The notes below the pieces were generated by a model that saw nothing but the letters and a program-made list of their open reading frames with translations, did not search any database and was not told the DNA's origin. Positions 43,292-62,103 of a DNA stretch of 64,000 nt are shown here, one piece after another. Position 1 is the stretch's first letter. Each line of letters starts with the position of its first letter. The stretch comes from an uncultured Acidobacteriota bacterium. Lineage in GTDB: Bacteria > Acidobacteriota > Thermoanaerobaculia > Multivoradales > SZUA-115. The DNA is taken from NCBI GenBank assembly GCA_963805975.1, contig CAWDVR010000001.1:640001-704000 (forward strand), read 5' to 3'. The translations under genes and the position numbers were made by a program.

Positions 43292-43306
43292 GCGAGACGA
43301 GCGAAG

Positions 43307-45064: not shown

Positions 45065-45190
45065 TCCTTCGCTTCCCTTTGATTCTTGACGCGCTGCTGC
45101 TCCGGCGCGGCGCGTTTCCGCACTCTGCGGTGCTCTCGATCAAGCTGCCGGTGAACTATAGTACGACCTACGCCAGTAGGAGATGACACC

Positions 45191-46597
45191 GTGACCTCAC
45201 GCCGGACCAGTCTTACGAACTCCAGTCTCGCCACCGTTTTTCCGCTCGCCTGCGCCTTCCTGGTGGGGGGCTCGCTGCTCGTGTCGCGGGTGGCCGTCGC
45301 CGGCGACTGGCTGATCTACGTCGACGAGACGAGCAGCCGCATCGCGGCCGATCCCAGCGTCGGTATCAACGACGTGCAGGAGAAGGACTTCGTCACCGGG
45401 GACGTGGACAAGGATGGCGACACCGATCTGATCGTCGTGCGCAAGACGCCCTTCACCAACCCCGGCGGTTTCCGCAACGTGCTGTTCCTCAACGAGAAGG
45501 GGGTGATGACGGACCGCACCTCCACTCTCGCTCCGGATTTTCTCGATCCGACCGACGACCGCGACGTGAAGCTGACCGACGTCGACGGGGACACCTGGCT
45601 CGACATCGTCACCGCCGGCACCTTTGGCGAGCAGCCGCGGGTGCTGATGAACCTGGGCACCAGCGCCGGGGCGTGGCAGGGCTTCGACTACCAGCCGGCG
45701 CGGTTGCCGGTCCTCATCTCTCCGCTGGGCAACGGGCCGAAGTTCTGCGGCCTGGGCGTCGGCGACGTCACCGGCGACGGGCGCCCCGAGCTCTACTTCT
45801 CCGACTACGAGAACGACATGGAGGACCGCCTGCTGGTCAACAACGGCGCCGGGTTCTTCACCGATCAGACCACCAGCCGCATGACGCCGACGATGGTGAG
45901 CTCGGTCTTCGGCACCGATGCAGACATCGTGGACATGAACGGCGACGGCTTCAACGACATCATCAAGGACAACGCCACCGGCAGCGGCGGCTCCGCGGGC
46001 GGCGGCGCGCCGGCGGTCTCGATCCTCTACAACAACGGCACCGGCAACTTCACGGTCATGGACACGATCTACGACGACGCGCCCTACATGGTGGCGCCGG
46101 CAGACTTCACCCAGGACGGCAGGCTCGACCTCTTCATCGTGGACGACGGCCAGGACGTCTATCTCATCAACACCGGCAACAACGGTCAGGGTCGCGCGCA
46201 GTTCACCACCCACATGTCGAACCCGAGCCCGAACACCAACTTCTTCGGTGGCAACGTCCAGTTCGCCGACCTCGACAACGACGGCGTGCTCGACGTGCTG
46301 ATCTCCGATGTGGACACCGATGCCCCCGGCTGCGACCGCCAGCTCGTCGTGCTGAAGGGGCAGGGTGTGCCCCCGGCCATCACCTACTCCGACCCCCTGC
46401 TGGGCGACAGCCGCCCCTGGACGCCGCTGGGAACCTTCGACGTCGCGCCCATGCACATCAACGACGACGGCATGCTCGATCTCTGGATCGGCACCTGCGA
46501 CGGCACCCTGGTCTTCATGGGCGTGGACCCCGCCTTCGTCTTCGCGGACGGCTTCGAGGCTGGCAACACCTCGGCGTGGTCTCTGACCGTGCCCTGA
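45191..46597 (+). CDS. Secreted FG-GAP/VCBS repeat beta-propeller
   Basis: About seven DxDxDG-type repeats; ends VFADGFEAGNTSAWS. Confidence 0.85.
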   Translation: MTSRRTSLTNSSLATVFPLACAFLVGGSLLVSRVAVAGDWLIYVDETSSRIAADPSVGINDVQEKDFVTGDVDKDGDTDLIVVRKTPFTNPGGFRNVLFLNEKGVMTDRTSTLAPDFLDPTDDRDVKLTDVDGDTWLDIVTAGTFGEQPRVLMNLGTSAGAWQGFDYQPARLPVLISPLGNGPKFCGLGVGDVTGDGRPELYFSDYENDMEDRLLVNNGAGFFTDQTTSRMTPTMVSSVFGTDADIVDMNGDGFNDIIKDNATGSGGSAGGGAPAVSILYNNGTGNFTVMDTIYDDAPYMVAPADFTQDGRLDLFIVDDGQDVYLINTGNNGQGRAQFTTHMSNPSPNTNFFGGNVQFADLDNDGVLDVLISDVDTDAPGCDRQLVVLKGQGVPPAITYSDPLLGDSRPWTPLGTFDVAPMHINDDGMLDLWIGTCDGTLVFMGVDPAFVFADGFEAGNTSAWSLTVP

Positions 46598-46939
46598 GGG
46601 CGAGGCCGGAGGCCCGGGACCACCGTCGCAGGTGATCGAGGAAACCTGGGCGTGGAGTGCAGTTTCGAGGCCGGCCGCCACTTCGCGAACGCATCGAGAC
46701 CGAGGCCGAGAGCGGCAGCTCGAGCGCCGACGAGGTGAGCGGCCTCGCCACCGGCGTGGCCCTTAAGAGGAAGGCCCTACTGAGCCGCACCGTGACCCCT
46801 GCGGGTGAGTTCTAGGTTCCTGCAGGCAGGCAGCCGCGCTCATAGATCTCACGATCGACCTCTTGGGAAAGGCGCAGTTCCGGCCCGAGCCACCTGCCGA
46901 GTCCCTTTGTTTTGAGCAGGTTGCGCATATCACATGGAA

Positions 46940-46955
46940 TGGCCTGAGGCTTGCT
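46940..46955 (+). promoter_or_regulatory. Putative sigma54 (-24/-12) promoter
   Basis: TGGCCTGAGGCTTGCT has exact GG-N10-GC spacing; an AT-rich, weak IHF-like tract lies at ~46903-46923; long intergenic region. Confidence 0.55.
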
Positions 46956-47175
46956 CAGGCCCGTGGCGAACGGTCGAAGACCATGACCACCGTCACGACG
47001 CGAAGGGAGCGTGGCACTCTTACATGCAGACCCTTGGTGAGTCGGGTGCTAGAGGGGCGCGTGCGGGTTGACCCTGCGGGGTCGGTCGATCACAATGACT
47101 GTCAACGCGGTTGGGGACGCGGGTGTGAGCCTCGGTCGCCCTCCAGCCACAACGATGTTTGCAGAGGTGCTCGCC

Positions 47176-47769
47176 ATGCAGAGTCTCGCTGCCCCCGCGA
47201 TTTCGGCGCCCGTCCAGGGCGGGTTGGTGCGCCGGCTCAACACCGAGTGGCACAAGCCGGCCCTGATCACGTTCGGGATCATCGTTCTCGCCCACTGGGC
47301 GGAGCACCTGGCCCAGGCGTTCCAGATCTACGCCCTCGGCTGGCCGGTGCCGGAGTCGCGCGGCGTGCTCGGCCTGTGGTTCCCCTGGCTGGTCAAGTCG
47401 GAGCTGCTGCACTACAGCTACGCGCTGGTGATGCTGGCCGGCCTGTGGGTGTTCCGCAGCGGGTTCAAGGGCCGCGGCTACGTCTGGTGGATGATCGCGT
47501 TCTGGATCCAGTTCTGGCACCACATCGAGCACGCGCTGTTGCAGGGCCAGGCCCTGGTCGGCAAGAACCTCTTCGACTCCCCGGTACCGACCAGCATCGT
47601 GCAGCTCTGGGTGCCGCGGGTCGAGCTGCATCTCTTCTACAACGCGATCGTGTTCATACCGATGGTGGTGGCGATGTACTACCACATGTTTCCGTCGCCT
47701 CAGGACGAGGCCCAGCACCAGTGCTCCTGCTCGCTGCACGGCCACAGTCACGCTCGTAGCCACTCCTGA
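47176..47769 (+). CDS. His-rich integral membrane protein of unknown function
   Basis: GAGGTG RBS; helices carrying HWAEH, ELLHY, FWHHIEH, ELHLFYN; C-terminal CSCSLHGHSH. Confidence 0.75.
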   Translation: MQSLAAPAISAPVQGGLVRRLNTEWHKPALITFGIIVLAHWAEHLAQAFQIYALGWPVPESRGVLGLWFPWLVKSELLHYSYALVMLAGLWVFRSGFKGRGYVWWMIAFWIQFWHHIEHALLQGQALVGKNLFDSPVPTSIVQLWVPRVELHLFYNAIVFIPMVVAMYYHMFPSPQDEAQHQCSCSLHGHSHARSHS

Positions 47770-47792
47770 GGCAGGCGCCGCCGGTCGCACGC

Positions 47793-48173
47793 GTGCTCCG
47801 TCGCCTCGTCGCCGTTCTCCTGTTGGCGCTGGCAGTAGGCTGCTCGCGCCCCGGCGCCGAGGATGACGGCGTGCGTATGGAGATGAGCGTTACGCCGCAG
47901 CCGCCGGTCACAGGCCTGGCCCGGCTCGAGATCCGCATTCGTGATGCGCAGGGCCGGGCGCTGGCGGCGACCGCCGTCGGGCTGGAAGCCAACATGACGC
48001 ACCCGGGCATGAAGCCCAGCTTCGCCACCGCCCGGCGTGAGCGGCCGGACCGCTGGCTGGCCGAGGTCGAGCTGACGATGGCCGGCGACTGGGTCGTGCT
48101 GGTCGACGCCCGGCTCGAGGATGGCCGCACGGTCCGCCGCTCCCTTCCGCTGCCGGGCGTGGAGCCGCGGTGA
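47793..48173 (+). CDS. YtkA/FixH-like lipoprotein
   Basis: LAVGC lipobox; EANMTHPGM; LTMAGDWVV. Confidence 0.78.
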   Translation: MLRRLVAVLLLALAVGCSRPGAEDDGVRMEMSVTPQPPVTGLARLEIRIRDAQGRALAATAVGLEANMTHPGMKPSFATARRERPDRWLAEVELTMAGDWVVLVDARLEDGRTVRRSLPLPGVEPR

Positions 48174-49651
48174 GCGCGGCCCCGGCTCGGGATGAAGCCC
48201 AGGCGCCGGCATTCGATCTGCTGCGCCTGCCGGTGGTCGGTACGCTCCTACGCCGGCCGGCGACGCGGACCGCGGCTCGGTTGTTCCTCCTGGCCTTGGC
48301 CCTCCTCATGGTCCTGCAGGGTTGGTTCGGCTCGCAACTGGGGCCCAAGAACCTGTCGACACTATTGACCTGGGTGCACTACCGGGGGCTGCTGGTCCTG
48401 GCACTGCTGATTGCCGGCAACGTGTTCTGCTACTCCTGTCCCATGGTTCTGTTCCGCGACCTGCTGCGCCGTTTTTTTCACCCGGCGCTGGCCTGGCCAC
48501 GGCGGCTGCGCAACAAGTGGACGGCGGTCGCGCTCTTCGCCGGCGTGCTCTACCTGTACGAGCTGTTCGACCTGTGGGGCGACCCGTGGCTCACGGCGTG
48601 GCTGATCGCCGGCTACTTCGTGGTGGCATCGGTGGTCGACGTGCTGTTCCGCGGCGCGTCGTTCTGCAAGTACCTGTGCCCGGTCGGCCAGTTCAACTTC
48701 CTGTCCTCGACCGTCTCGCCGCTCGAGGTCACGGTCCGCGATCGCGACGTGTGCGCCGGCTGCAAGGGCAAGGAGTGCATCGCCGGCGCCGCGGCGACGC
48801 TCGCACGCCCCGCCCAACGGGGCTGCGAGCTGGCCCTGTTCCAGCCCCGCAAGGTGGGCAACCTCGACTGCACGTTCTGCCTCGACTGCGTCTATGCCTG
48901 CCCCTACGAGAACGTCGGGATCTTCACCCGCGTCCCCGGCGCCGAGCTGGCAGAACCGGGCCCGCGCTCGGGTGTGGGGCGGCCGGCGGAGCGGCCCGAC
49001 CTCGCGTTCCTCGCCACGCTCTTCGCCTTCGGTGCGCTGCTCAACGTCTTCGGCATGGTCAGCCCGGTGCACGCGGTGGAGCAGTGGCTGTTCGCCCTGC
49101 TCGGCGTCCGCCACGAGGCGCCGGTCCTCGGCCTGGTGTTCGGGACGGTGCTGGTGCTCGAGCCGCTGTTGTTGCTCGGTGCGGCGGCGTGGATCTTCCG
49201 CCAGCTCACCGGCAGTGGCGAGACGATGCTGCGCATCGCTATGCGGTACGCCTACTCGCTGGTGCCGCTCGGCTTCGGCGTCTGGCTGTCCCACTACCTC
49301 TTCCACCTGGCGACCGGAGCCCTCACCTTCGTGCCGGTTGTGCAGTCGTTGCTCGAGAGAGCCGGGGTGGGGCTGCTCGGGCCGCCGGACTGGACCCTCG
49401 GCGGTCTGCCCGCGCCGTCGGTGCTGCCCTTCGAGCTCGGCTTCCTCGGTCTCGGCTTCGTGGTGACGCTGGCGGTGACCTGGCGGCTCGCCCTGGTCGA
49501 CGCGCCGAGCCGGGTGGGACGGGCGTTCCTGCCATGGGCGTGCCTGCACTCGCTGCTGCTGGCCACGGCCACATGGCTGCTCTTCCAGCCCATGGAGATG
49601 CGCGGGACATTCCTTTCTATGACGGGCCTCTCTATGACGGGCCTCTCTTGA
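48170..49651 (+). CDS. Membrane-bound 4Fe-4S protein (NapH/MauN/FixG-like)
   Basis: FCYSCP, FCKYLCP, CAGCKGKEC, CTFCLDCVYACP; many TM helices. Confidence 0.82.
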   Translation: MSAAPARDEAQAPAFDLLRLPVVGTLLRRPATRTAARLFLLALALLMVLQGWFGSQLGPKNLSTLLTWVHYRGLLVLALLIAGNVFCYSCPMVLFRDLLRRFFHPALAWPRRLRNKWTAVALFAGVLYLYELFDLWGDPWLTAWLIAGYFVVASVVDVLFRGASFCKYLCPVGQFNFLSSTVSPLEVTVRDRDVCAGCKGKECIAGAAATLARPAQRGCELALFQPRKVGNLDCTFCLDCVYACPYENVGIFTRVPGAELAEPGPRSGVGRPAERPDLAFLATLFAFGALLNVFGMVSPVHAVEQWLFALLGVRHEAPVLGLVFGTVLVLEPLLLLGAAAWIFRQLTGSGETMLRIAMRYAYSLVPLGFGVWLSHYLFHLATGALTFVPVVQSLLERAGVGLLGPPDWTLGGLPAPSVLPFELGFLGLGFVVTLAVTWRLALVDAPSRVGRAFLPWACLHSLLLATATWLLFQPMEMRGTFLSMTGLSMTGLS

Positions 49652-49653
49652 CG
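49616..49653 (+). repeat. 15-bp tandem duplication (tctatgacgggcctc x2 + partial) at a gene junction
   Basis: Directly visible; encodes SMTGL-SMTGL. Confidence 0.8.
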
Positions 49654-50175
49654 ACGCGTCGTTCGCGCCTTCGCTCCCGGCTGGCGGTCCTCGCCTGGCT
49701 CTGCTTGGCTTGCCCCGCGGCGGCGCACGACGGCCCGCCCTACGCGATCATCGTCGATCGCGCGACCGGCCCCGTGCTGCTCTCGGTGTGGGCGGACCCC
49801 GACGTCGGCACCGGCACCTATCACGTCTACCTGGAGCCGCTCGCCGACGATCGCGCGCTTCCCGACGACTGCGCGGTTCAGGTTTTCGTGCGACCGGCCG
49901 GCGACCGCCTGCCCGAGCGCGGCTACCCGGCCGAGCCGCTGCGCATCGCCGAGGATCGCCATCACCACCTCGCCGAGGTGCAGTTCGACGCCGAGGGAGA
50001 GTGGCGGACGCGGATCGTCGTGCGCTGCGGGGAACTGGAAGGAGAAGCGGAGGCCCTGGTCGAGGTCACACCGCCGGGGCAGGGCCCGGTGCTCGACTTC
50101 GTCCTCTATCTGTTTCCCTTCGCGGCGGTGGCGGTGCTCATCGTCCGTGCGCTCATCGTGCGGCGGCGACGGTAG
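49648..50175 (+). CDS. Exported protein with predicted N-terminal His and a C-terminal membrane anchor
   Basis: TTGA overlap; signal ...CPAAA then HDGPPY; WADPDVGTG; C-terminal TM helix followed by RRRR. Confidence 0.7.
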   Translation: MTTRRSRLRSRLAVLAWLCLACPAAAHDGPPYAIIVDRATGPVLLSVWADPDVGTGTYHVYLEPLADDRALPDDCAVQVFVRPAGDRLPERGYPAEPLRIAEDRHHHLAEVQFDAEGEWRTRIVVRCGELEGEAEALVEVTPPGQGPVLDFVLYLFPFAAVAVLIVRALIVRRRR

Positions 50176-50998
50176 AGGCCGCCCGCGAGCGCAGCCACAT
50201 CTCGAGGAGCAGCGCCGCGGGCCCCACGAGGAAGAGCGCATAGAACGGCGCATAGATGACCTCGGCGAGACGCAGCAGCATCTCCACGAAAGCCACCACG
50301 ATCACCACCACGACTTGGCCCCAGCGCGGGCCGACCGTGGTCTTGGGATCGGTCACCATGAAGAAGATGAAGAGCTGGTACATCGGCCCGGTGATCGGCG
50401 ACAGGGTTGCGAGCCAGGGGTTGCCGGTGATGGCGCTGCGCAGCAGAGAGAACACCACGAAGGCGACGACATAGGCCGCGCTGATGTGCAGCCGGCCCAC
50501 CCGCCAGACGATGAAGAACCCCAGCACCCAGATCACCGCCATCGGCCAGATGTTGTTGCCCCACTGGATGCTGAGCAGCGACACCGTCTCCGGCGCCAGG
50601 AACAGCACCGCAGAGACGCCGAAGTTGGACGGGTTCCACAGGTGCCGGCCCTCGAACCGCAGGACGTACTTGGAGACGATCGAGATCAGGCTGGCGAGCG
50701 CATAGGCCCAGAGGAACGGCGAGCGGATCAGGATCCCCACGCTGATGCCGGTGATATACGCGCTTGCCGGGTGGGGCCAGCGGCCATACGAGATCCGGCC
50801 CAGGAGCATCTCCGCACCGATCGCGACCAGGATCGCCACGGCGGTCCGCTCGAACGACTCGAGAATGCCGAACGTGAAGTGCGCCGTGATCAGGATGCAG
50901 GTGATTAGGATCGGCGGCAGGAACCGATTGTCGAGCGCGAACCTCGAGGGTCGCCGGGGCATGGCCTCTCCCGGCGCGACGGTGATCTCAGTGCTCAT
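50153..50998 (-). CDS. UnbU-like / RnfD-NqrB family membrane protein
   Basis: SAYITG, SKYVLR, HLWNPSNFG, LFIFFMVTDPKT; coupled to an UnbV-like gene; no other rnf/nqr genes present. Confidence 0.8.
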   Translation of the reverse strand: MSTEITVAPGEAMPRRPSRFALDNRFLPPILITCILITAHFTFGILESFERTAVAILVAIGAEMLLGRISYGRWPHPASAYITGISVGILIRSPFLWAYALASLISIVSKYVLRFEGRHLWNPSNFGVSAVLFLAPETVSLLSIQWGNNIWPMAVIWVLGFFIVWRVGRLHISAAYVVAFVVFSLLRSAITGNPWLATLSPITGPMYQLFIFFMVTDPKTTVGPRWGQVVVVIVVAFVEMLLRLAEVIYAPFYALFLVGPAALLLEMWLRSRAASTVAAAR

Positions 50999-52797
50999 TG
51001 CGGTTCCCTCAGCCGGTGGAGGCGGTCGACTCCGGGACGCTCGAGCGTCTCGCTGCGGCCCGACGGCCAGCGGACCACGGCCCGATCCACCGCCGCGGCG
51101 GATCCCAGCCCGTAGTGCAATCGCCGCTGGTTCTGGGCGCTGAAGCCGCTGCCGCCGCTGACCTCCTGCACCTGGCGCTGGCGGTTCCAATGGACTTCCA
51201 CCCGCGCCCCGATGGCGCTGCGGTTGCTGGCCGTCCCTTCGAGCTCGAAGGCGATCCAGTGTCGTCCCGGCTCGACGGAGTTCCGGTACACCAGGAGCGG
51301 CCCGCGCTGGTTGGCGACGATCACGTCCAGCGCTCCGCGGTTCGAGAGGTCCGCGAGGGCGACCGCCCGGCCGTCGAAGGTGTCGGTGACCCCCACCTCC
51401 CGGGCCACCTCGGTGAAGCGGCCGACGCCGTCGTTGAGCCAGACGCGCGAGGGTTGGTAGCCCGAGAGGCTGCGGCCGCGCATCGCCGGCCAGTTGCGGG
51501 CGTCGCCGATGATCCGGCTGTGCCCCACCGCGATCTCCGCGAAGTCATACCAATAGCTAGTGCGCTCGCCGGCCGAGACGTAGCCGTTGGCGAGATAGAT
51601 GTCGAGCGTGCCGTCGTTGTTGAGGTCGCCGAACTGCGCCCCCCAGCTCCAGCCGCCGAGATCGACGCCGAGCGTCGCCGCGAGATCCTCGTACTCGAGC
51701 CCCGCCCCCGCGGTGCCCGCCTTCGGCACCCAGAGGTCGTTGGCCTGCACCAGCACGCCGGGCTCGGAGATGTTGGTCTTGTAGATCGACAGCCGCCCGT
51801 CGTTGAAGACGTCGCCGAACGAGCTGTTCATGCCGCTCTTCGGCGTGCGGCCCACACCGGTTTCGCGCCCGATCTCGACGAAGCCTTTGCCACCCCGATT
51901 GGAGTAGAGCTCGGCCACGCCATAGTCGTTGGCCAGGAAGAGGTCCGGATAGCCGGTCCCGAAGAGGTCCGCGGCGGAGGCGGCCAGCGTCCAGCGGCGC
52001 GAGCGGATCCCCAGCGCTTCGGAGGTCTCCTCGAAGGTACCGTCGCCTCGGTTCCGGAAGAGGTACTTGCGGCCCCCGTTCTGCGCGTACTCGAAGCTCT
52101 CCGGCATGATGCGGGTCGTCTCGAGCTTCCAGAGGTCGATGTCCTCGGCCCAGTAGCCGGCGAGGAAGAGGTCGAGCCATCCGTCTCGGTCGTAGTCCCA
52201 CCACAGGGCGGAGTTCGCGTTGACCCACGGCGGCAGGCCGGCCTGCTCGGAGATGCGCACGAAGGCCTGCCCGCGGTCGTTGCGGAAGAGCTCGGGCCGG
52301 CCGTACTTGTAGAGGAAGAGGTCCTCGTAGCCGTCGTTGTCGATGTCGCCCCAGAGCGCACCCATCGAGACGCCGGTGCCGGGGCGGTTGACGTCGGCCA
52401 GCCCGAGGGCGGGTGCCAGGTCCGTGAACGACCCGTCGTGGTTGTTGCGAAACAGGCGGTTCTGGCTGCCCTCCGCACTGTTCGTGACGTAGACGTCCTG
52501 CCATCCGTCGCGGTCGAAGTCGCCGACCGCCACCGCGGCACCCAGCGCCGCGATCTGCGGCATGATGTGATCGAGCTGCGCGTCGAACGTCGGCGCCTGG
52601 TGGACGAAGTCCATGCCCAGGCGCTTGGCGGATTCCTCGAATCGAAACCCGTGCCGCAAAGTGGCCGGATCGGCGCCGTCCGGCGCGCTGCCGGCGCGGC
52701 TGGCGGATCGGTTGATCGCCACCACGGCGACCAGCGCCAGCACGAACAGGGCCGTCCACAGCACCCTCAGCAACCCTTGGCGGCCGGCGTCGGTCAT
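50995..52797 (-). CDS. UnbV-like CRTAC1/ASPIC FG-GAP protein
   Basis: IMPESFEYAQNGG, RWTLA, ANDYG, GWSWGAQFGDLNNDG, NRSAIGARV, LHYGLG, VRWPSG. Confidence 0.88.
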   Translation of the reverse strand: MTDAGRQGLLRVLWTALFVLALVAVVAINRSASRAGSAPDGADPATLRHGFRFEESAKRLGMDFVHQAPTFDAQLDHIMPQIAALGAAVAVGDFDRDGWQDVYVTNSAEGSQNRLFRNNHDGSFTDLAPALGLADVNRPGTGVSMGALWGDIDNDGYEDLFLYKYGRPELFRNDRGQAFVRISEQAGLPPWVNANSALWWDYDRDGWLDLFLAGYWAEDIDLWKLETTRIMPESFEYAQNGGRKYLFRNRGDGTFEETSEALGIRSRRWTLAASAADLFGTGYPDLFLANDYGVAELYSNRGGKGFVEIGRETGVGRTPKSGMNSSFGDVFNDGRLSIYKTNISEPGVLVQANDLWVPKAGTAGAGLEYEDLAATLGVDLGGWSWGAQFGDLNNDGTLDIYLANGYVSAGERTSYWYDFAEIAVGHSRIIGDARNWPAMRGRSLSGYQPSRVWLNDGVGRFTEVAREVGVTDTFDGRAVALADLSNRGALDVIVANQRGPLLVYRNSVEPGRHWIAFELEGTASNRSAIGARVEVHWNRQRQVQEVSGGSGFSAQNQRRLHYGLGSAAAVDRAVVRWPSGRSETLERPGVDRLHRLREPQ

Positions 52798-55700
52798 GGC
52801 GATCTCGGGGCCTCCGCCAGCGCGAGCCCGTCGAGGAAGGCCTGCGGCGTCACGAAGCGAGTGTGGAAGGTCTGCCAATCCTCGTGGTGCCGCCGGTAGA
52901 CGGGATCCTCCTCCAGCGTTGGCGTCGGCGATGACGCTTCGTAGCGAGGATGGCCATGCTGCGGCAGCGGCAGCACGGTCTTGGAGTAGCTGGTGTTGTA
53001 GTCCCCGTCCTTCACCCAGCCGTCGCCGATGAGCACGAAGTCGCGTGCCTGCCCGGGCCCCGGCGGAGGGGGAGCCGGGAACGAAAGGAGTAGCTCGTCA
53101 CCCGCGTTCATGATCACGTACCGGTCCTCGACCTCGGCGAGCAGCGGTCGCACATCGCCGAAGCGCGTATGGTAGCCGACCAGGTCGCGCCACCGAGGCA
53201 CGGTGTTGGCGATCCGCTCGTAAACGGGGATCTCGGGCAGGTCGCGCCGGCCGCTCGAGGTTTCCGAGAACCCGCGATAACGAAGGTCCGCCCGCGAGAG
53301 GTTGATCCGGCGAGTCGCGAGCGGTGCGTCGGGCACGCCGACCGCATAGGCGAGAGAATCCCAGTAGACCTCCAGGTTGGTGCGCAACCGCAGCCGCCGC
53401 GCGGCGTGGACGCCGGCGCGCGAGACGAGGCCCAGGTCGATCAGGATCGTCTTGCTCTTGCCGGCGGGGAAGCCGAGATCGGTCGCCACCTGCACCCAGC
53501 GGCCCGTGGCGTCCCGGGCTTCGAGCGAGAGGCTTCGTGGCGGCGCATGCCCGCCCTGGCCGATCGCCACGTTGATGCTGCTGTCGGTCGGGTAGACCCA
53601 GCCGTGGGCCACCAGCCACATCGGCGTGTCACCGGGAATCTCGGTGCCCAGGTCGAGTTCCACGAAGTGGTCCTCGGCCACGCCCTGATAGCGGCCGCGC
53701 TGGAAGGTGGCGAGGAAGCGGCCGTCCTGCCGCGCGACGAGATCGGTCACCTCCGCACCGCTCTCGTCCCAGGCGCGCGCGACGGGCCGCGGCGCTCGCA
53801 TCGCGTGCACCGCCAGCGCGGGTGGCGCCACGGGGACGAACCGCTCGTCGACGAAGACCTCCACGTCCTCGGGCCGATCGACCACCAGCAGCGAGATGTG
53901 ATCGACGAAGTGCGTCTCCCAGAGCTCGGCGCTGATCCGTACGTCGTAGGCACCGTCGCGTGCCACGAGCTGATCGCCCCGGACCTTCACCCAGTCCTCG
54001 GTCTGGGTCACGCCGGCGGTGTCGTGCGCATTGATCCGCAGGCCGAGCGGCGAGCGCCACAGGAAGTCGGTCACGAAGCGCATGCCGGCGCCATCGTACG
54101 CGAAGATCCACGGGCACGATCCCTTGAGGCGTTGCTCGGCCACGACCGGCCGGTCGACCTCGGGATCGAACTCCGCCTGAGGCACGCCGTTCGGCCAGAC
54201 GATGCGGGTGACGTCGACGCTGGTCCGTGCGCCGAGCCCGAAGTGCACGGAGGGACCGGTGATCGCCTGCTTCTGCACCAGCCGGCCCGCGCGGGCTTCG
54301 ACCGTCCCGCCCACGCCGAAGGAGTTGATGCGCTGGTCGCCCGCCGCGCTCTGGGCGCGCGGGCGCACGACGTGGAAGTGGTAGCCCCGGGTGCCGCGCC
54401 CGCTGGAGCGGACGGCCCGCCCGCCCGCGAGGCCGACGAGGTCGAGCTGGCCGTCGCCGTCGAGATCGACGGCGGCCCCGGTCTCCGCCGCGAGCGTGGC
54501 CCCGAGCCGCCGCAGCACCCGGTCCTCGCCGGCCAGCCAGAGGGCGCTGGCGCCCGGCCCGGAAGCCACGAGGTCGAGCGCGCCGTTGTTGTCGAGGTCC
54601 GCGAGCAGCAGCCTCGCCGCTCCGGCCGGCATCTCGGGCCAGCTCGCCCAGGTCTCCTCGGTCCATCCGGCCGAGCCCCACGATGCGCGCCGTATCGTGC
54701 CTCCCCCGAGCGTCACGAGATCCAGCAGGCCGTCGGCATCGACGTCTCCCGCGGCGAGCGCGGTCATCCCGCTTCGGTTCTCCGGGCCCGGCACCGGCTC
54801 GAAGCGGCCTCCCTGCAGGTTGGCCAGCAGGTGCAGCGAGCCGCCGCCGTCGAGGAGCGCGGCGTCCGGATCTCCGTCGTCGTCGAAATCTCCCCAGGCG
54901 AACGCGTGGAGCCCCACGACGCCGGCCAGGGGCCGGGTAGGCTGCCAGGTCCCGTCGCCGTTGTTTCTCAGCACGACCGGCGCCGACGCGCGCACGCCGA
55001 CGACGAGGTCGAGGTCGCCGTCCATCTCGATGTCCGCGGCCCAGGCGCCGATCGCATCCAGCTCCTGGGGGCCGCTCTGGTCGCCGGCGCGAGCCGTCTC
55101 GTCCGTGAACGTGCCGTCGGCGGCTTGCAGGAACAGCCGCACACCAGCGGCCCCGGCCGCGACCAGGTCCATCCGGAAGTCGTGGTTCCAATCGAGGGCC
55201 AGGAGCCCGCTGGTCGGCGGCGGCGCGCCGGCCGCGCCACCGGGAAACGGTAAAGCGGCCCCCGGCACGTCCACGCGATGCACCTGGCGCGCGTCGGCGA
55301 CGAACACCGCCGGACGCTCTTGGCCGTCGAGCGAGACCGCGAGCAGTACGCTCGCCGGCGCCGGCGGTGCCTCACCGAGGGGCTCGAGCGAGAGCACCAG
55401 GGCCTCGTCCGCAGGCGCCGGCGCGGCCGACGGCACGGGCAGGCGCAGGAAGCGCTTGAACGGCTCGGCAACCAGCTCGTCGGGCTGCGTGACGAGGCGG
55501 CGGCTCTCGCGGAAGGCCGGCACCGGCGCGAGCAGGTTGCGCAAGAACGCCATCGCCCGCGCCGCGGCGGGGAAGTCAGAGGCGTCGCTGGCCTGCCGCG
55601 CCGAGCGATACTGGGCGACCACCTCGGGAGGCCACCCGGCGACGAATCGCTCGAGCCGGTCGAGCGAGTCCTTCAGCAATCCGGCGTCGCCACGCTTGGC

Positions 55701-56303
55701 GGAGAGCCGGGCGCGCTCGACCAGGACGGCCAGGTTGTTGGGCTGGAGCTCGACCAGATCCTCGAGCAGCCGTTGCGCTTCGGCGTTGGCATCGGGCCCG
55801 CCGGCGTTTTCGACCTCCTGGCTCAGGGCTGTCCTCGCCTGCAGGTTGCCGCCATCGAGCTCGACCGCCCGGCGCAGGTGGGCGATCCCTTCGTCACGAC
55901 TTCCACGTATCGCCGCGAAGCGAGCCTGGAGAAACGCCACCTCGCTGCTCCGCGGCGCCAGCGTGGCCGCCCGCTCGATCGCCGGGGCGGCGGTGTCGAA
56001 GGCTCCCAACCGGAGGTGCACCAGGCCCAGGTTGGCCCAGGCGGCAGGTTCCCCTGGCGCGAGCTCGGTGGCCTGCGTGAGCTCCTTGGCCGCGTCATCG
56101 AGGAGCCCGACCTCGAGCTTCGCCAGGCCCCGGAAGAACCGCCGGGTCGTCTGTTCGTACGCCTCGGACCCCGCCGCCGGCAGCCCTGCGTTGCGGCCCT
56201 TCGTCTGGTAGAGGTAGAGGCCGCCCGCCGCGAGGGCTGCGAGCACCAGCGCCCACGCGAGAGGGTGAACCATACGGCTTCCGGCCGGGGACTTGGGGAT
56301 CAC
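52794..56303 (-). CDS. TPR + FG-GAP + ASPIC/UnbV multidomain protein
   Basis: N-terminal TM helix and TPRs; DxDxDG repeats; VHFGLG...WPNG; KGSCP; GWVKDGD; start may be 56273. Confidence 0.85.
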   Translation of the reverse strand: MIPKSPAGSRMVHPLAWALVLAALAAGGLYLYQTKGRNAGLPAAGSEAYEQTTRRFFRGLAKLEVGLLDDAAKELTQATELAPGEPAAWANLGLVHLRLGAFDTAAPAIERAATLAPRSSEVAFLQARFAAIRGSRDEGIAHLRRAVELDGGNLQARTALSQEVENAGGPDANAEAQRLLEDLVELQPNNLAVLVERARLSAKRGDAGLLKDSLDRLERFVAGWPPEVVAQYRSARQASDASDFPAAARAMAFLRNLLAPVPAFRESRRLVTQPDELVAEPFKRFLRLPVPSAAPAPADEALVLSLEPLGEAPPAPASVLLAVSLDGQERPAVFVADARQVHRVDVPGAALPFPGGAAGAPPPTSGLLALDWNHDFRMDLVAAGAAGVRLFLQAADGTFTDETARAGDQSGPQELDAIGAWAADIEMDGDLDLVVGVRASAPVVLRNNGDGTWQPTRPLAGVVGLHAFAWGDFDDDGDPDAALLDGGGSLHLLANLQGGRFEPVPGPENRSGMTALAAGDVDADGLLDLVTLGGGTIRRASWGSAGWTEETWASWPEMPAGAARLLLADLDNNGALDLVASGPGASALWLAGEDRVLRRLGATLAAETGAAVDLDGDGQLDLVGLAGGRAVRSSGRGTRGYHFHVVRPRAQSAAGDQRINSFGVGGTVEARAGRLVQKQAITGPSVHFGLGARTSVDVTRIVWPNGVPQAEFDPEVDRPVVAEQRLKGSCPWIFAYDGAGMRFVTDFLWRSPLGLRINAHDTAGVTQTEDWVKVRGDQLVARDGAYDVRISAELWETHFVDHISLLVVDRPEDVEVFVDERFVPVAPPALAVHAMRAPRPVARAWDESGAEVTDLVARQDGRFLATFQRGRYQGVAEDHFVELDLGTEIPGDTPMWLVAHGWVYPTDSSINVAIGQGGHAPPRSLSLEARDATGRWVQVATDLGFPAGKSKTILIDLGLVSRAGVHAARRLRLRTNLEVYWDSLAYAVGVPDAPLATRRINLSRADLRYRGFSETSSGRRDLPEIPVYERIANTVPRWRDLVGYHTRFGDVRPLLAEVEDRYVIMNAGDELLLSFPAPPPPGPGQARDFVLIGDGWVKDGDYNTSYSKTVLPLPQHGHPRYEASSPTPTLEEDPVYRRHHEDWQTFHTRFVTPQAFLDGLALAEAPRSP

Positions 56304-56379
56304 TCGCGCTCCGTGGACCTGTCGTCTGGCCCCATTGTACCGACAGGCAGATCCCTGCGAGCCGATCGCTCGTGGTCCC

Positions 56380-58854
56380 TCAGAACTTCACGCGGGCGCT
56401 CACCCCGTAGGTGCGGGGCTGGTTGGTGAGGAAGCTCACCCGTGCGAGCGTGCCGCGCTCCTGCTCGAGGGCCAGGAGAGCGCGCTCGTCCGTGACGTTG
56501 TTGATGAAGAGCGCCGCGTCCCACTTCTCGTCGAGGAAGCCCAGCCGGAGGTTCACGAGGTCGTAGGCCGGCAGCTCGGCGGCGAACTGGAAGCTGCTCG
56601 CCGTCAGCGGGCCGCCGATGGTGTTGGGCAAGGCTTGCAGGTTCACCGTGCCGAAGCCGACGGCCTGGTCGCCGATCTGGGTGAAGCGCGAGCCCACGTG
56701 CTGGTAGGTCCCGGTGACGTACCCCAGCCAGTTGCTCCCGACCCGCCACTGGCCGGTAGTCGCCGCCACCACGTGCAGCTTGGGAACGGTGGGCAGGCGG
56801 TTGCCCTTCTGGAGGCCCGACACCACGCTGACGGTGCCCGCCGTGTCGGTGGAGGTCAGAGTCGACCGCAGCTCGGAATCGCTGTAGCTCGCAGAGAGGG
56901 CGAAGTCGAGGCTCTCGTTCGGCGCCGCCGTGAGCTCGAGCTCGATCCCCTGGCTCCGTGCCTTGGGCACGTTGAACACCACGCGGGACGAGCAGGAGCC
57001 CGCCGTCACCGTCGCCTGCAGATCCGAGATGTCCATGTAGTAGACCGCGGCGTTGATCGTGCCGCGACCGCCCATCACGGTGGACTTCGAGCCCACCTCG
57101 TAGTTCCAGAGCTCCTCGTCCTTCCAGGTGCCCCGGCCGCCGAAGGTTTCCAGATCCTGCGGCGTGCACAGCGGCCGGTTCAGCGGGTCGTTGATCCCGC
57201 CCAGCCGGAAGCCCTTCGAGACCTGGGCGTTGAGGCTGATCGTGTCGTTCAGGGCGTAGCTCGCGATGAGGCGCGGAGCAAAGCCGTCCGCCGAGGTCGA
57301 GCCCGGGTTCGACACCAGGGAGATGCCGTTGTTGTCGTTGCCGAAGGCGCCGTCGAAGACCTGGGTGCGATCCTCCTCGAAGTCGTAGTAGCGGAGCCCT
57401 CCGGTGAGGTCGAGGCGCTCGGTCGCCGCCCAGGTGACCTCCCCGAACAGCGCGATCTGCCGCAGGTCGTAGGAGAGATCGGAGAAGAACAGCACGTCCC
57501 GCGGTGCCAGCAGGCCCTGGGTTGGCATGCCGGTGGCTGCCTCGAAGCCCTCGGCCACTACTTGCTGGCCATAGTCGCGGGTCATGTCTGTGTAGAAGAT
57601 GCCGCTCAGCCAGGCCAGCGTGTCGGAACCGCCGGAGAGCCGCAGCTCCTGGGTCAGGACCTGGGCCTGGGTGGCGTCGTAGAGCGGGGAGTCGAGGGTG
57701 TAGATGCTCTCGGGCAGGCCGAGGTTGCCACCGGTGAAGCTGGCGGTGAGCATCGTCGTGTCCCGCACTACCAGCACGTCGCGGTCCGTGAACGAGGTGA
57801 TCGAGGTGAGGGTCATCTCGCCGAGGTCGTAGTCGAGGGTGAGATCGGCGAGCAGGAACTCGTCCGAGAAGGGCTCCTCGAGCTGCGAGAACTGCTCGCG
57901 CTCGCCCAGGTCGACCGCCGGCCGGGTCGTGGTGAAGGGGTTGCCGAGGAGGTTGTAGACGTCCTCGCGGTTCCAGCCGTCCATGTCCACTTCCTGATAG
58001 ACCAGGCGCGGCGTGATGGTCAGCCTCTCGTTGGGCTGCGCCCTGAAGGCCAGCCGCACGCCCGTACGGTCGCCGCCGTTCACGTCCTCCTGGACGCGCA
58101 GGCTCGGCTGCACGGCATCGACGAAGCCGCCGGACCGGGTGTGGTAGCCCACCACGCGCAGGGCCGCCTTCTCGCCGACCGGCACGTTGGCCCCCACCTT
58201 CACGCTGCCGCCGATCTCGCCGCCGCTGATGGCGCTCGCGGTCATCTCGCCGAACGACTCGGAGAGGCCGAGCTCGGGCTGCCGGGTGATGTAGCGCACG
58301 GTGCCGGAGAGCGAGCCCGAGCCGAAGAGGGTGCCCTGGGGGCCGCGCAGCACCTCGACGCGCGCCATGTCGACCAGGTCGAGGTCGGGCGTAAAGAGCG
58401 AGAGCGAGATCGGGGACTCGTCCAGATAGATGCCCACCTGCTCCTTGACGCCGGGCTGGTCGCGGACGATCTGGCCGGCCGAGACGCCGCGCATGGCCAC
58501 CTGGCTCTGGCCGGGGCCGAGGTTCTGCACGGTGAACCCGGGCACGTTCGCGGCCACGCCCTCGATGCTGTCCACCCCGCGCGCTCGGAGCACCTCCTCG
58601 CTGGGCGCGGCCACGGACAGCGGCACGTCCTGGAGGGATTCCTCGCGCTTTCTGGAGGTGACGGTGATCTCCTCGCTCACCGCCTGGGGCTCTGGCTCCT
58701 GCGCGATCGCCGGCTGCTCTGTCCCCGGCGATGGCTGATCCTGGGCCGCGAGTAGGCCCGGCAAGCCGGTGAGCCAGGCTGCCATGGCCAGAACAAGGGT
58801 CCATTCTGCGCTGCCGTGCCTTCGGCACACGTGCTCCGAGATCTCACCCATCAT
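56380..58854 (-). CDS. TonB-dependent receptor
   Basis: EEITVTSRKREESLQDVP, RVEVLRGPQGTLFG, NYEVG, NNVTDE, PRTYG, C-terminal F; start uncertain. Confidence 0.93.
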   Translation of the reverse strand: MMGEISEHVCRRHGSAEWTLVLAMAAWLTGLPGLLAAQDQPSPGTEQPAIAQEPEPQAVSEEITVTSRKREESLQDVPLSVAAPSEEVLRARGVDSIEGVAANVPGFTVQNLGPGQSQVAMRGVSAGQIVRDQPGVKEQVGIYLDESPISLSLFTPDLDLVDMARVEVLRGPQGTLFGSGSLSGTVRYITRQPELGLSESFGEMTASAISGGEIGGSVKVGANVPVGEKAALRVVGYHTRSGGFVDAVQPSLRVQEDVNGGDRTGVRLAFRAQPNERLTITPRLVYQEVDMDGWNREDVYNLLGNPFTTTRPAVDLGEREQFSQLEEPFSDEFLLADLTLDYDLGEMTLTSITSFTDRDVLVVRDTTMLTASFTGGNLGLPESIYTLDSPLYDATQAQVLTQELRLSGGSDTLAWLSGIFYTDMTRDYGQQVVAEGFEAATGMPTQGLLAPRDVLFFSDLSYDLRQIALFGEVTWAATERLDLTGGLRYYDFEEDRTQVFDGAFGNDNNGISLVSNPGSTSADGFAPRLIASYALNDTISLNAQVSKGFRLGGINDPLNRPLCTPQDLETFGGRGTWKDEELWNYEVGSKSTVMGGRGTINAAVYYMDISDLQATVTAGSCSSRVVFNVPKARSQGIELELTAAPNESLDFALSASYSDSELRSTLTSTDTAGTVSVVSGLQKGNRLPTVPKLHVVAATTGQWRVGSNWLGYVTGTYQHVGSRFTQIGDQAVGFGTVNLQALPNTIGGPLTASSFQFAAELPAYDLVNLRLGFLDEKWDAALFINNVTDERALLALEQERGTLARVSFLTNQPRTYGVSARVKF

Positions 58855-59059
58855 GTGGTCGACCACCTCGGGCGGGCCTAGAGCAAGCCTCGGACCATCC
58901 ACCTGGAGGCGGCTAACTGCTGATTTATCAGGGGTTCGGCAGGCGACTCGAACCGTGGACGCGGCGTTCCCACGAGGTCGAATCGTGGGATCTATGATCT
59001 CGGCCGCTTCGACTACAATCTGGGACTCGGCACACTGCGGAAATACGGCGAGACGCTTG

Positions 59060-59635
59060 GTGGAACACCCCCTCTCGACCTTGATCCTGTCCGCCGATCG
59101 CGGCGACGGCCAAGCCTCCGAGGCGCTCTTTGCGGCGCTCTATCGAGAGCTCCGCGGGCTCGCTCGCCGCGAGCTGGCGCGCTCGGGGCCAGGCGCCGCG
59201 CTCGGCGTGACCAGCCTGCTCCACGAGGCCTATCTCGACATCGCGAAGCGCGAAGGGATGGCCTTCCCCGACCGCGCCCGGTTCCTCACCTATGCGGCCC
59301 GGGTCATGCGCGGCCTGATCATCGACGGCCTCCGCAGCCGCCAGGCCAGGAAGCGTGGCGGTGACTTCGAGATCACCTCGATCGACGGCAAGGACGTGGG
59401 CGGCGCGGGCCCGTCGGGCGAGGCCGAAGAGATCGAGCGGCTCGGCCAGGCGCTCGACGAGCTCGCCGCCGTGGAGCCGGAGATCGCGCACGTCGTCGAC
59501 CTCAAGTTCTTCTGCGGTTTCACCTTCACCGAGATCGCGAACCTCCGCGGGCTGAGCGAGCGCACGGTGCAGCGGCAGTGGGACAAGGCGCGGATCTACC
59601 TTCGCCAGGCGCTGCGCACGGGGCTCCTCGAGTGA
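59060..59635 (+). CDS. ECF sigma factor of the kinase-associated type
   Basis: LYRELRGLA, TSLLHEAY, AARVMRGLIID, ARKRGG, VVDLKFFCG, SERTVQRQWDKAR. Confidence 0.88.
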   Translation: MEHPLSTLILSADRGDGQASEALFAALYRELRGLARRELARSGPGAALGVTSLLHEAYLDIAKREGMAFPDRARFLTYAARVMRGLIIDGLRSRQARKRGGDFEITSIDGKDVGGAGPSGEAEEIERLGQALDELAAVEPEIAHVVDLKFFCGFTFTEIANLRGLSERTVQRQWDKARIYLRQALRTGLLE

Positions 59636-62103
59636 AGAGCGAGCGCTGGCGGCTCGTCAGCCCCCACCTCGACCGGGTGCTCGAGCTGTCCGCGGACGAG
59701 CGGCTGCGCTACCTCACCGACCTGCTGAGCGAGGACTCCGCGCTCGCCGCGGACCTCGAGCTGCTGCTCGGTGAAGAACGGCTGGTGCGCGACGAGAAGT
59801 ACCTGGAGCACGACGCGCAGGAGCTGCTCGGCAAGCCCGCTCTCATCGGGCAGGTCTTCGGCGCCTATGCACTGGTTCGACCGCTCGGCGCCGGGGGCAT
59901 GGGTAGCGTCTGGCTGGCGCGGCGGAGCGACGGCCACTTCGAGGGGACGGCCGCGGTCAAGCTCCTCTCCGCCGCGCTCCTGGGCCCTCTGGGCGCCTCC
60001 CGCTTCCGCCGCGAGGCCACGATCCTCGCGCGCATGAAGCACCCCCACATCGCCCAGCTCATCGACGCCGGCGTCTCCGAGGTCGGCCAGCCGTACCTGG
60101 TTCTCGAGTACGTCGAGGGCGAGCCGATCGACCACTGGTGCGATCGCCTGGCCCTCGATGTCCGGTCCCGTGTGCGGCTCTTTCTCGACGTGCTCGCCGC
60201 CGCGGCGCACGCGCACTCGAACCTCGTCGTCCACGCCGACCTCAAACCGTCGAACGTCATGGTGTCGAAAGAGGGGCGGGTGAAGCTGCTCGACTTCGGC
60301 ATCGCCAAGCTCCTCGAGGGGGAGGCCGGAGGCCGGGCCTTGACTCAGTTGACACTGGAAGGGGGGCGTGCCTTCACGCCGTCTTTCGCCGCGCCCGAGC
60401 AGGTCACGGGCGAGAGCGTGACCACCGCCACCGACGTCTACGGCCTGGGCGCGCTGCTCTATCTCCTCCTCTCTGGCCGCTATCCGGCCGGAGAGCCGGA
60501 CGCCTCGCCCGTCGAGCTGCTCAAGGCGATCGTCGAGACCGAGCCCGACCGCCTGTCCGACGCGGTCCACGACCCGCGCCTGGGGCGCGAGCTCCGGGGC
60601 GATCTCGACACCATCGCCGCCAAGGCCTTGAAGAAGCGCCCCGAAGAGCGCTACGAGTCGGTCGCCGCGCTGGCCGAGGATCTGCGCCGCTATCTTGCCG
60701 AGGAGCCGATCCTCGCCCGGCCCGATTCCCTGGCCTACCGGACCCGGAAGTTCGTGCGCCGCCATGCGCGGAGCCTGGCGGCCGCCGCCGTGGCGGTCTT
60801 TGCCCTGGCCGCGGTCGTAGCGTTCTACGGCGCCCGGCTCGCCGACGAACGGGACCGCGCGACCCGGGTGAGCGGTTTCCTGACCGACCTCTTGAGCCAC
60901 GCGGACCCGTACGTGTCCGGCCGGGGCGAGCCCACGGTGCGGAGCCTGCTCGACGCCGGCGCGGCCCGGGCGCGGAAAGACCTGACCGCGGAGCCCGAGC
61001 TCCAGCGCCAGATGCTCACCCTCCTGGGCCGGATCTACGAGCGGCGCGGAGCCTACGAGCTGGCCCTGCCGCTGCTCGACGAAGCCGTCGCTCTCGGCCG
61101 CCGGACCCTGGGCCCGAGTCGCGAGCTGGCCCAGAGCTTGAACGACCTGGGCGTCGCCCAGCAGCAGCGGGCCGAGCTGGACGCCGCCCGCACCACGCTC
61201 GAAGAGGCGCTCGCGATGCGGCGGAAGGTTCTCGGCGAGGAGCACCCGGACGTCGCCGTGACCTACAGCGAGCTCGGTCGAGTGTTCTTCGACCAGGGTC
61301 GCCTGGACGAAGCCGAGACGCACTTCCGTACGGCGCTCGCGATCCGGCGCAAGACGCTCGGAGAGGCCGACCACGAGACGGCGACCAGCATGAGCGATCT
61401 GGGCCTCCTCCTGCGCCAGAAGGGCGACCGGGCCGGAGCCGAGGAATTGTTTCGGGAGACCTTGACGGTGACTCGGGCCTCGAGCGGCTTGCGGCATCCG
61501 GACACCGCCACGGCGCTCGCCAACCTGGCCATGACCGTCAACGAGGGCGGCAACCATGTGGCCGCCGAGGCGATGTATCGCGAGTCGCTGGCCATCAGCA
61601 ATGCCAGCTTGGGAAGAGAGCATCCCGACAACGCACAACGCCTCGCCAGCCTCGCGGGAGTCCTACGGCTCAGAGGCAAGCTCGCCGAGGCAGCGGCGAG
61701 AAACGAGGAGGCCCTGGCGATCTCCCGGCCGGCCCTGGGCCTGGACCACCCGGCCGTCGCCCGCCAGGAGGTGGGTCTGGCGCGCACCTACCTCGAACAG
61801 GGCCGACCCGCCGACGCGGAGCCGCTGCTCCGTCACGCGCTCGGGGTGCAGCAGGGCAGTTATGCCGCCGACGACTGGCGGCTGGGGGCGACCCAGAGCC
61901 TCCTCGGGGACACCTGCACGAGGCTCTCCCGCTTTGCCGAAGCCGAGCCCTACCTGCTCCGCGCCTCCGACCTGCTTCAGGTGACGCCCGGCTCCGACGG
62001 CCTCGAGACCCGCGAGGCCCAGGCCAATCTCGCTCGCCTCGTCGCGCTCTACGAGGCCTGGGGCCAGCCCGAGAAGGCGGCGCCGTACCGCTCGCCGCGG
62101 TAG
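59632..62103 (+). CDS. Membrane Ser/Thr protein kinase with TPR repeats
   Basis: LGAGGMGSVW, AVK, HADLKPSN, DFGIAK, APEQ, DVYGLG; TM helix then TPR array; GTGA overlap with the ECF gene. Confidence 0.92.
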   Translation: MKSERWRLVSPHLDRVLELSADERLRYLTDLLSEDSALAADLELLLGEERLVRDEKYLEHDAQELLGKPALIGQVFGAYALVRPLGAGGMGSVWLARRSDGHFEGTAAVKLLSAALLGPLGASRFRREATILARMKHPHIAQLIDAGVSEVGQPYLVLEYVEGEPIDHWCDRLALDVRSRVRLFLDVLAAAAHAHSNLVVHADLKPSNVMVSKEGRVKLLDFGIAKLLEGEAGGRALTQLTLEGGRAFTPSFAAPEQVTGESVTTATDVYGLGALLYLLLSGRYPAGEPDASPVELLKAIVETEPDRLSDAVHDPRLGRELRGDLDTIAAKALKKRPEERYESVAALAEDLRRYLAEEPILARPDSLAYRTRKFVRRHARSLAAAAVAVFALAAVVAFYGARLADERDRATRVSGFLTDLLSHADPYVSGRGEPTVRSLLDAGAARARKDLTAEPELQRQMLTLLGRIYERRGAYELALPLLDEAVALGRRTLGPSRELAQSLNDLGVAQQQRAELDAARTTLEEALAMRRKVLGEEHPDVAVTYSELGRVFFDQGRLDEAETHFRTALAIRRKTLGEADHETATSMSDLGLLLRQKGDRAGAEELFRETLTVTRASSGLRHPDTATALANLAMTVNEGGNHVAAEAMYRESLAISNASLGREHPDNAQRLASLAGVLRLRGKLAEAAARNEEALAISRPALGLDHPAVARQEVGLARTYLEQGRPADAEPLLRHALGVQQGSYAADDWRLGATQSLLGDTCTRLSRFAEAEPYLLRASDLLQVTPGSDGLETREAQANLARLVALYEAWGQPEKAAPYRSPR

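Follow-up and report, generated by a model that had tools for sequence, protein, structure and literature searches.

A 64,000-nucleotide stretch of DNA from an uncultured Acidobacteriota bacterium of the SZUA-115 lineage (assembly GCA_963805975.1, contig CAWDVR010000001.1, positions 640,001 to 704,000; this whole stretch is called the window here) carries an UnbV-like and an UnbU-like gene, akin to E4 and E5 of enediyne biosynthesis, together with a gene for a large TPR-propeller protein. We find that these three coupled genes are a conserved module that is independent of a polyketide synthase (PKS), widespread in soil bacteria and related to E4/E5. According to excerpts of one account (PMC9992847), E4 and E5 occur in every enediyne cluster, and three genes of the enediyne cassette are of unknown function. 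Literature searches, whose coverage took in few subscription papers, returned no account of a PKS-free UnbV/UnbU module. To this we add the presence of both versions, module and enediyne cassette, in one genome, an accessory gene block behind a true E4/E5 pair, fusions of SgcS-like domains to propellers and a count of the block on its own.

A conserved three-gene module

The core genes, all on the minus strand, are:

52794–56303, minus: core gene 1, TPR/FG-GAP/ASPIC protein, 1169 aa from a GTG start (domains by Pfam)
50995–52797, minus: core gene 2, UnbV-like protein, 600 aa (six FG-GAP_3 matches and UnbV_ASPIC, 9e-21)
50153–50998, minus: core gene 3, UnbU/RnfD-like protein, 281 aa (PF03116, 3.5e-8)

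The minus-strand order is TonB-dependent receptor (TBDR), TPR-propeller, UnbV-like, UnbU-like. ATGA overlaps at the TPR/UnbV and UnbV/UnbU junctions confirm the overlap of the UnbV-like and UnbU-like genes, and of the 1169-aa gene upstream of them, that a preliminary description of this DNA had reported; a scan of the locus for promoters and terminators gave a result at chance level. The same description had seen no PKS, thioesterase (TE) or other rnf gene in the window, and our searches of the window agree, with no match for an enediyne PKS (PKSE), thioesterase, DUF1702 or E. coli RsxABCDGE; none of the 12 ketosynthase matches in the genome falls inside it.

We analysed the best 80 of at least 539 confirmed GTDB loci (60–79% identity, 56 of them full-length), a set of closest relatives that are mutually non-independent, and a phylum sample of 201 evenly sampled genomes. 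Families of neighbouring genes were clustered with a composition filter that drops some real genes, so the counts of these neighbour families are lower bounds. The 80 loci belong chiefly to Acidobacteriota, with a few from Pseudomonadota. The UnbV-like gene is present in 79 of them, the TPR-propeller gene in 73 (six of the seven misses are on short contigs) and a second propeller gene in 57, and 55 of the 56 full-length loci hold the complete trio of TPR-propeller, UnbV-like and UnbU-like genes. The TPR-ASPIC gene is thus a true member of the system, as first supposed. PKSE, E3, TE and DUF2330 genes are found in none of the 80 loci.

Twelve of the 201 phylum-sample genomes carry the window clade, and all 11 other carriers keep the TPR-UnbV-UnbU order. 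None of these 11 genomes, which are 99–100% complete, has a DUF1702 gene, and the PKSE N-terminus gives only partial matches in them (at most 204 bits, versus 1145), so that the early view of the pair as PKS-independent extends to the family. The clade is found in only one of 40 nearer relatives; its distribution is therefore patchy. A PKS-free sister module as common as this implies a broader job for E4/E5-type pairs.

Relationship to E4 and E5

Unrooted trees of small taxon samples, in which RnfD, the one outgroup, sits on a long branch and supplies no root, divide UnbU-like proteins into three clades: the window type, E5 and a type linked to DUF2330 genes. L020 was dropped for want of the anchor motif; one of these trees covers 16 of the 80 loci; the later three-clade tree left out RsxD and a Metabacillus row; and two of our three trees are quick searches. 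Mean identities are 28% between the window type and E5, 25% between the window and DUF2330-linked types and 25% for the remaining pair. For the propellers, a quick tree of 30 rows puts E4, the window clade and one C1 paralogue on one side of a split (SH-aLRT 99) and 15 generic CRTAC1 rows on the other, and SgcE4 scores 154–182 bits against the window clade versus 38–69 bits against the generic CRTAC1 rows. The separate clades and the SgcE4 scores indicate that the window pair are relatives, not orthologues, of E4/E5, with the UnbV-like protein standing nearer to E4 than the generic CRTAC1 proteins do. Hence the kinship originally proposed stands, including that of the UnbV-like protein with E4 rather than with generic CRTAC1; orthology does not, both proteins falling in clades of their own outside E4 and E5.

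Several paralogues of these families were seen. The source genome has a third UnbU-like gene preceding a DUF2330 gene (G000:C1:400553-402757, L003), and this DUF2330-linked clade (L003 and its relatives L011–L023) is common in the source order and has the same Asn/Asp motifs. A stand-alone propeller-ASPIC-TPR protein (L006:7638-10301, G000:C1) shares 42% identity with the UnbV-like protein of the window, and a similar gene (L127) adjoins DUF1702 and PKS-like genes in G076. Paralogues of the TPR-propeller gene lie near nitrilase-family genes at L004 (G000:C3:584000-593000) and, beside the module, in the Pyrinomonadaceae-type loci L057, L072 and L082.

An enediyne cassette in the same genome

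The supposition that the source genome is free of a PKSE failed: a genome search found a complete-looking E3-E4-E5-PKSE-TE cassette, its E3 a DUF1702 gene, on contig C3 (326310-336438). Its PKSE, a 1980-aa frame, is 50% identical to SgcE over 1956 columns, and its E3, E4 and E5 are 39, 45 and 49% identical to the C-1027 proteins, compared with 28 and 32% for the window pair. An AhpD/CMD-like gene opens this enediyne-type stretch (G000:C3:325025-336438, L001), and no E2, SgcS or E8 homologue was found near the cassette. In the assembly the reading frame of the C3 E4 gene shifts ahead of the ASPIC domain; a frame change likewise interrupts a TBDR gene on contig C2, so the shift may plausibly stem from an assembly indel. 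The two versions in one genome allow a side-by-side comparison. E3, E4 and E5 reportedly act in forming a diiodotetrayne, in work of Gui et al. from 2024.

Among the other loci read, Sinorhizobium meliloti pSymA (L105) carries a complete E3-E4-E5-PKSE-TE cassette on a rhizobium plasmid, and on a Serratia plasmid (NZ_MT039191; L107:1-11610) DUF1702, E4 and E5 adjoin discrete ketosynthase genes, the part read containing no PKSE. A peroxidase-related gene near the edge of the C-1027 cluster (L008:338-916) shares 46–50% identity with AhpD-like genes that neighbour the module.

Proteins of the module

The predicted model of the UnbU-like protein (predicted local distance difference test, pLDDT, 79) matches RnfD best (8rbq_D, TMq 0.72), and its top 15 fold matches are all RnfD or NqrB. 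At the sequence level it reaches 19.5 bits against TIGR01946 (cut-off 207) and has no match in the PDB. Aligned to E. coli RsxD, it keeps N122-P and D217-P, motifs found in 80 of 80 orthologues, and N122, P123, D217 and P218 are conserved throughout the three UnbU-like clades; a loop of about 74 aa that bears the flavin mononucleotide (FMN) threonine is absent. In RnfD, as described in parts of PMC11889175 and PMC9588780, an Asn and an Asp bind riboflavin on the cytoplasmic side and a Thr binds FMN on the outer one. N122 and D217 would then be the RnfD riboflavin-site residues. A genome search with PF03116 missed the window gene and is therefore insensitive for the window clade; E. coli Rsx queries found no RsxA, RsxB, RsxE or RsxG, a single partial RsxC match and a partial RsxD match that falls on another UnbU-like gene. 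The labels ‘enediyne biosynthesis protein E5' and ‘RnfD/NqrB' that databases attach to UnbU-like proteins are no evidence of an enediyne cluster or of an Rnf complex.

The UnbV-like protein has an N-terminal transmembrane segment (residues 10–28) and an ASPIC domain. The TPR protein comprises an N-terminal membrane anchor, TPR, an FG-GAP propeller, a weak ASPIC/UnbV domain and an all-beta C-terminal domain of about 450 aa, and many Terriglobia orthologues have a lipobox-like Cys. With one N-terminal hydrophobic segment in each propeller protein and this Cys in the TPR protein, we infer that both are periplasmic. For the C-terminal 450 aa of that protein the predicted model is all-beta (pLDDT 84), and Foldseek finds nothing like it in the PDB above TMq 0.24; sequence searches return weak RFC matches and unnamed atlas clusters only, with no named family.

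A four-gene accessory block

A block of four genes (47155-50175, plus strand), unmentioned in the preliminary description, converges on the UnbU-like gene, the 3' end of its last gene overlapping the UnbU-like stop by 23 bp:

47155–47769, plus: accessory gene 1, SgcS-like His/Glu-rich membrane protein
47793–48173, plus: accessory gene 2, YtkA/CtaK-like exported protein (PF13115, 1.5e-7)
48170–49651, plus: accessory gene 3, NapH/MauN-like membrane polyferredoxin (TIGR02163, 4e-10, below cut-off; weak Fer4_5)
49648–50175, plus: accessory gene 4, exported His-rich protein with a C-terminal transmembrane segment (no Pfam match)

The SgcS-like gene, whose likely start is ATG 47176, is 57% identical to a C-1027 protein (WP_010056327.1, E 3e-61). 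The C-1027 homologue adjoins E1-E2-E3 and is divergent from E1-E2-E3-E4-E5-PKSE in all three Streptomyces plasmid loci read, of 14 plasmid matches; a cyanobacterial SgcS-like match has no enediyne context. The C-1027 cluster supplement, in the part available, lists SgcS, of unknown function, at that position (PMC5181780), and we equate the homologue with sgcS (AAL06705) by position and its 187-aa length against those rows, rather than by a direct sequence match. The motifs HWxEH, ExxH, HHxEH, ELH and CxC are invariant in 42 rows of SgcS-like proteins, and their His, Glu and Cys residues suggest a membrane metal site. A PDB sequence search gave nothing significant; with PF19471 (DUF6008) the window protein has no match, four of 42 orthologues match weakly (best 0.017) and distant homologues reach at most 26.6 bits against a cut-off of 27. 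The YtkA-like protein shows the motif M-x-H-x-G-M in 13 of 13 called orthologues, and accessory gene 4 may itself be YtkA-like. We considered SgcT as an equivalent of YtkA and rejected it, there being no similarity; SgcT has no match in the source genome or the 80 loci. YtkA domains support copper loading in Bacillus, according to part of PMC13344008.

The block recurs with the module. Across the 80 loci the NapH-like gene is present in 48, the SgcS-like gene in 46 (and in 40 of the 56 full-length loci), gene 4 in 44 and the YtkA gene in 40, lying upstream of the core, downstream or convergent with it. The SgcS-like gene occurs three times in the 201 genomes: in the source genome and in G066, both times next to this module, and in G072, where a true E4/E5-clade pair is followed directly by the whole four-gene block. 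Two protein clusters (P0408 and P0297), one of them with at least six full-length members, join an SgcS-like domain to an FG-GAP/ASPIC propeller in a single protein. Searches anchored on the SgcS-like gene gave the best 80 of 501 metagenome loci, 25 of them 7 kb or longer, whose other neighbours show no common theme.

The pair and block of G072 belong to a non-PKSE polyketide cluster (G072:C4:31300-60900, L123-L124) that also has genes for DUF1702, a desaturase and halogenase-like, RoxA-like cytochrome and catalase-like proteins; a PKSE cassette lies elsewhere in that genome (L125). Fusions of SgcS-like domains to a Phenol_MetA_deg outer-membrane barrel were seen in P0393, P0395-P0401, P0403, P0405 and P0406, one of them named Longimicrobium.

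Proposed mechanism

We tentatively favour, with a little less than even confidence, a reading in which the products of the core trio form a redox complex, anchored in the membrane and facing the periplasm, that modifies a small molecule and is possibly fed with copper. The UnbU-like protein would bind riboflavin at its Asn/Asp site and carry electrons across the inner membrane. Its outer face has no FMN loop; the UnbV-like propeller, anchored in the membrane, would serve that face and hold the substrate in its invariant aromatic loops (W223, F235, Y237, Y415-F419 and W436). The TPR-propeller protein and, in most relatives, the second propeller would be scaffolds or binding partners. Where the block is present, YtkA would supply copper, the NapH-like protein quinol-derived electrons and the SgcS-like protein a further metal-binding membrane component.

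Several observations weigh against this redox complex. The core genes fix no electron donor or acceptor, the equation of N122 and D217 with the riboflavin site comes from an alignment to E. coli RsxD, and a channel role for the UnbU-like protein is conceivable because RnfD shares its topology with urea and ammonium channels (PMC9588780, in part). The four-gene block is optional, being found in two of the 12 module-bearing genomes of the phylum sample, and the C3 PKSE cassette does without it. Only two of the 25 longer SgcS-anchored loci hold a core gene, five having generic CRTAC1 only and 18 neither; the fused SgcS-propellers fall among generic CRTAC1 proteins, away from both E4 and the window clade, and 11 of 24 longer SgcS-like homologues are fused to a Phenol_MetA_deg barrel instead.

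A bolder extension, which we regard as speculative and unlikely, is that pairs of the E4/E5 type, whether or not they lie in an enediyne cluster, form a periplasmic oxidation machine that depends on copper, is wired through flavin and has SgcS, a membrane metalloprotein, as its partner; the version without a PKS in soil bacteria would perform the same chemistry (for example, oxidation of iodide or a polyene) on another substrate. The media for dynemicin, tiancimycin and yangpumicin, as given in part of PMC8210685, all contain CuSO4 and NaI; the CuSO4 is an outside hint of a copper link and no demonstration of a copper enzyme. If true, such a machine would explain both additives in the three media and make the still unsolved chemistry of the enediyne core accessible in a simple setting.

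Alternative interpretations

The UnbU-like protein might instead be a channel for a small solute such as a halide, with the propellers as periplasmic binding or scaffold proteins and no electron transfer. The loss of the FMN loop fits such a channel, as does the importance of iodide for enediyne biosynthesis described in parts of PMC8210685 and PMC9992847, and halogenase-like genes lie in at least 16 and deiodinase-like genes in at least four of the 80 loci; these neighbours, however, come from a few related lineages with no background control, and none is in the window. We treat the halogen or iodide theme among the neighbours as no more than a pointer. Urea transporters do appear among the fold matches (TMq 0.42–0.47), but they rank after RnfD/NqrB, which fit far better, and the retained riboflavin-site Asn/Asp also leads us to think a channel unlikely. 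A non-redox scaffold or adhesin of calcium-binding propellers on a degenerate RnfD-like anchor, its enediyne links due to shared ancestry only, would suit the 11 UnbV-like places that tblastn finds in the source genome, the fact that human CRTAC1 is the only solved relative, and the weak matches of the TPR C-terminal domain, confined to jelly-roll and carbohydrate-binding pieces. Yet a membrane protein that is 60–79% identical across classes, a gene order kept strictly, a metal/redox block recruited more than once and a propeller on the E4 side of the tree make this quite improbable.

Uptake and breakdown of a substrate brought in through outer-membrane receptors and permeases, along the lines of the preliminary description, draws on the transporters around the module: 21 of the 80 loci have a TBDR of another type no more than 10 kb away (a raw count, with no background density for those genomes), L028, L031 and L048 have a set of Oar-type TBDR, APC permease and AhpD-like genes upstream of the TPR gene and on its strand, and a sodium:solute symporter is directly upstream in at least six loci. 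The window TBDR type is nevertheless absent from all 80, and no single transporter family was counted in more than seven of them (APC permease at least seven, symporter at least six, ATP-binding cassette parts at least three); we judge this explanation distinctly unlikely. The window pair or the SgcS-like gene might, lastly, work in trans for the C3 cassette, whose E4 is frameshifted and whose genome has its only SgcS homologue in the window. That E4 frameshift has its parallel in the split C2 TBDR, the cassette has its own E3, E4 and E5, closer to the Sgc proteins than the window pair is, and all 11 other carriers of the module manage without a PKSE, which renders service in trans highly improbable.

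Neighbouring genes

Upstream of the core lies the receptor named above:

56380–58854, minus: TBDR, 824 aa from ATG, with plug and TonB barrel

The receptor is co-oriented with the core genes, as described at the outset, and uncoupled from them, ending 76 bp short of the GTG of the TPR gene. A soil contig from an independent run (467 nt, 15 differences, 97% alike) covers 56172-56638 and so spans the TBDR/TPR junction, which shows that the adjacency is not an assembly join. We rejected the receptor as a module member: its type is found in none of the 80 loci, a TBDR in one of 11 further phylum-sample loci is 24% identical, downstream and on the opposite strand, and a 76% identical paralogue on C2 sits in an unrelated context. 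The idea that it belongs to the system was therefore not upheld, and it is likely a chance local neighbour.

The window does hold the four FG-GAP propeller genes within 15 kb noted originally (41585-56303, 14.7 kb). The propeller at 41.6 kb does not group with the module's second propeller in a tree, and the MauG-like, FG-GAP and CRTAC1 genes at 40.7–46.6 kb were rejected as members, the MauG-like gene occurring in none of the 80 loci. At 43307-46597, outside the module, a divergent MauG-like di-haem gene and an FG-GAP gene each end in the motif FADGFE(S/A)G. Divergent from the TBDR, at 58769-62103, are genes for an extracytoplasmic function (ECF) sigma factor (TIGR02999, over cut-off) and a Ser/Thr kinase-TPR protein; this pair may regulate the TBDR and was likewise rejected as part of the module (ECF in one, kinase in five of the 80 loci).

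Near the module in other genomes, deiodinase-like frames have an in-frame TGA at SYT*PP (L044, L050 and L093, after the second propeller) and AhpD-like frames have CPY*; the deiodinase-/AhpD-like set also covers L092, L095 and L102. The frames with an in-frame stop are probable selenoproteins.

Comparison with known systems

The predicted fold of the UnbU-like protein and its riboflavin-site Asn/Asp resemble RnfD/NqrB, but the protein has no FMN-Thr loop and the genome no RnfA, RnfB, RnfE or RnfG homologue by E. coli queries. The block proteins have domain matches to YtkA/CtaK and NapH/MauN, the NapH score lying below cut-off; unlike those systems, the block has no oxidase or nitrate reductase genes alongside. 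With SgcS the window protein shares all His/Glu motifs and the terminal CxC, whereas its gene heads a four-gene block that also occurs alone, and is accompanied by YtkA and NapH-like genes where C-1027 has SgcT. A further close parallel is SgcE4/SgcE5 of C-1027: the propeller-then-membrane-protein order, the coupling, the domains, the NP.N and DP.T motifs and a nearby SgcS homologue are common to both. The module differs from the enediyne cassette in having no PKSE, TE or DUF1702, in its separate, well-supported clades and in its extra 1169-aa TPR-propeller gene.

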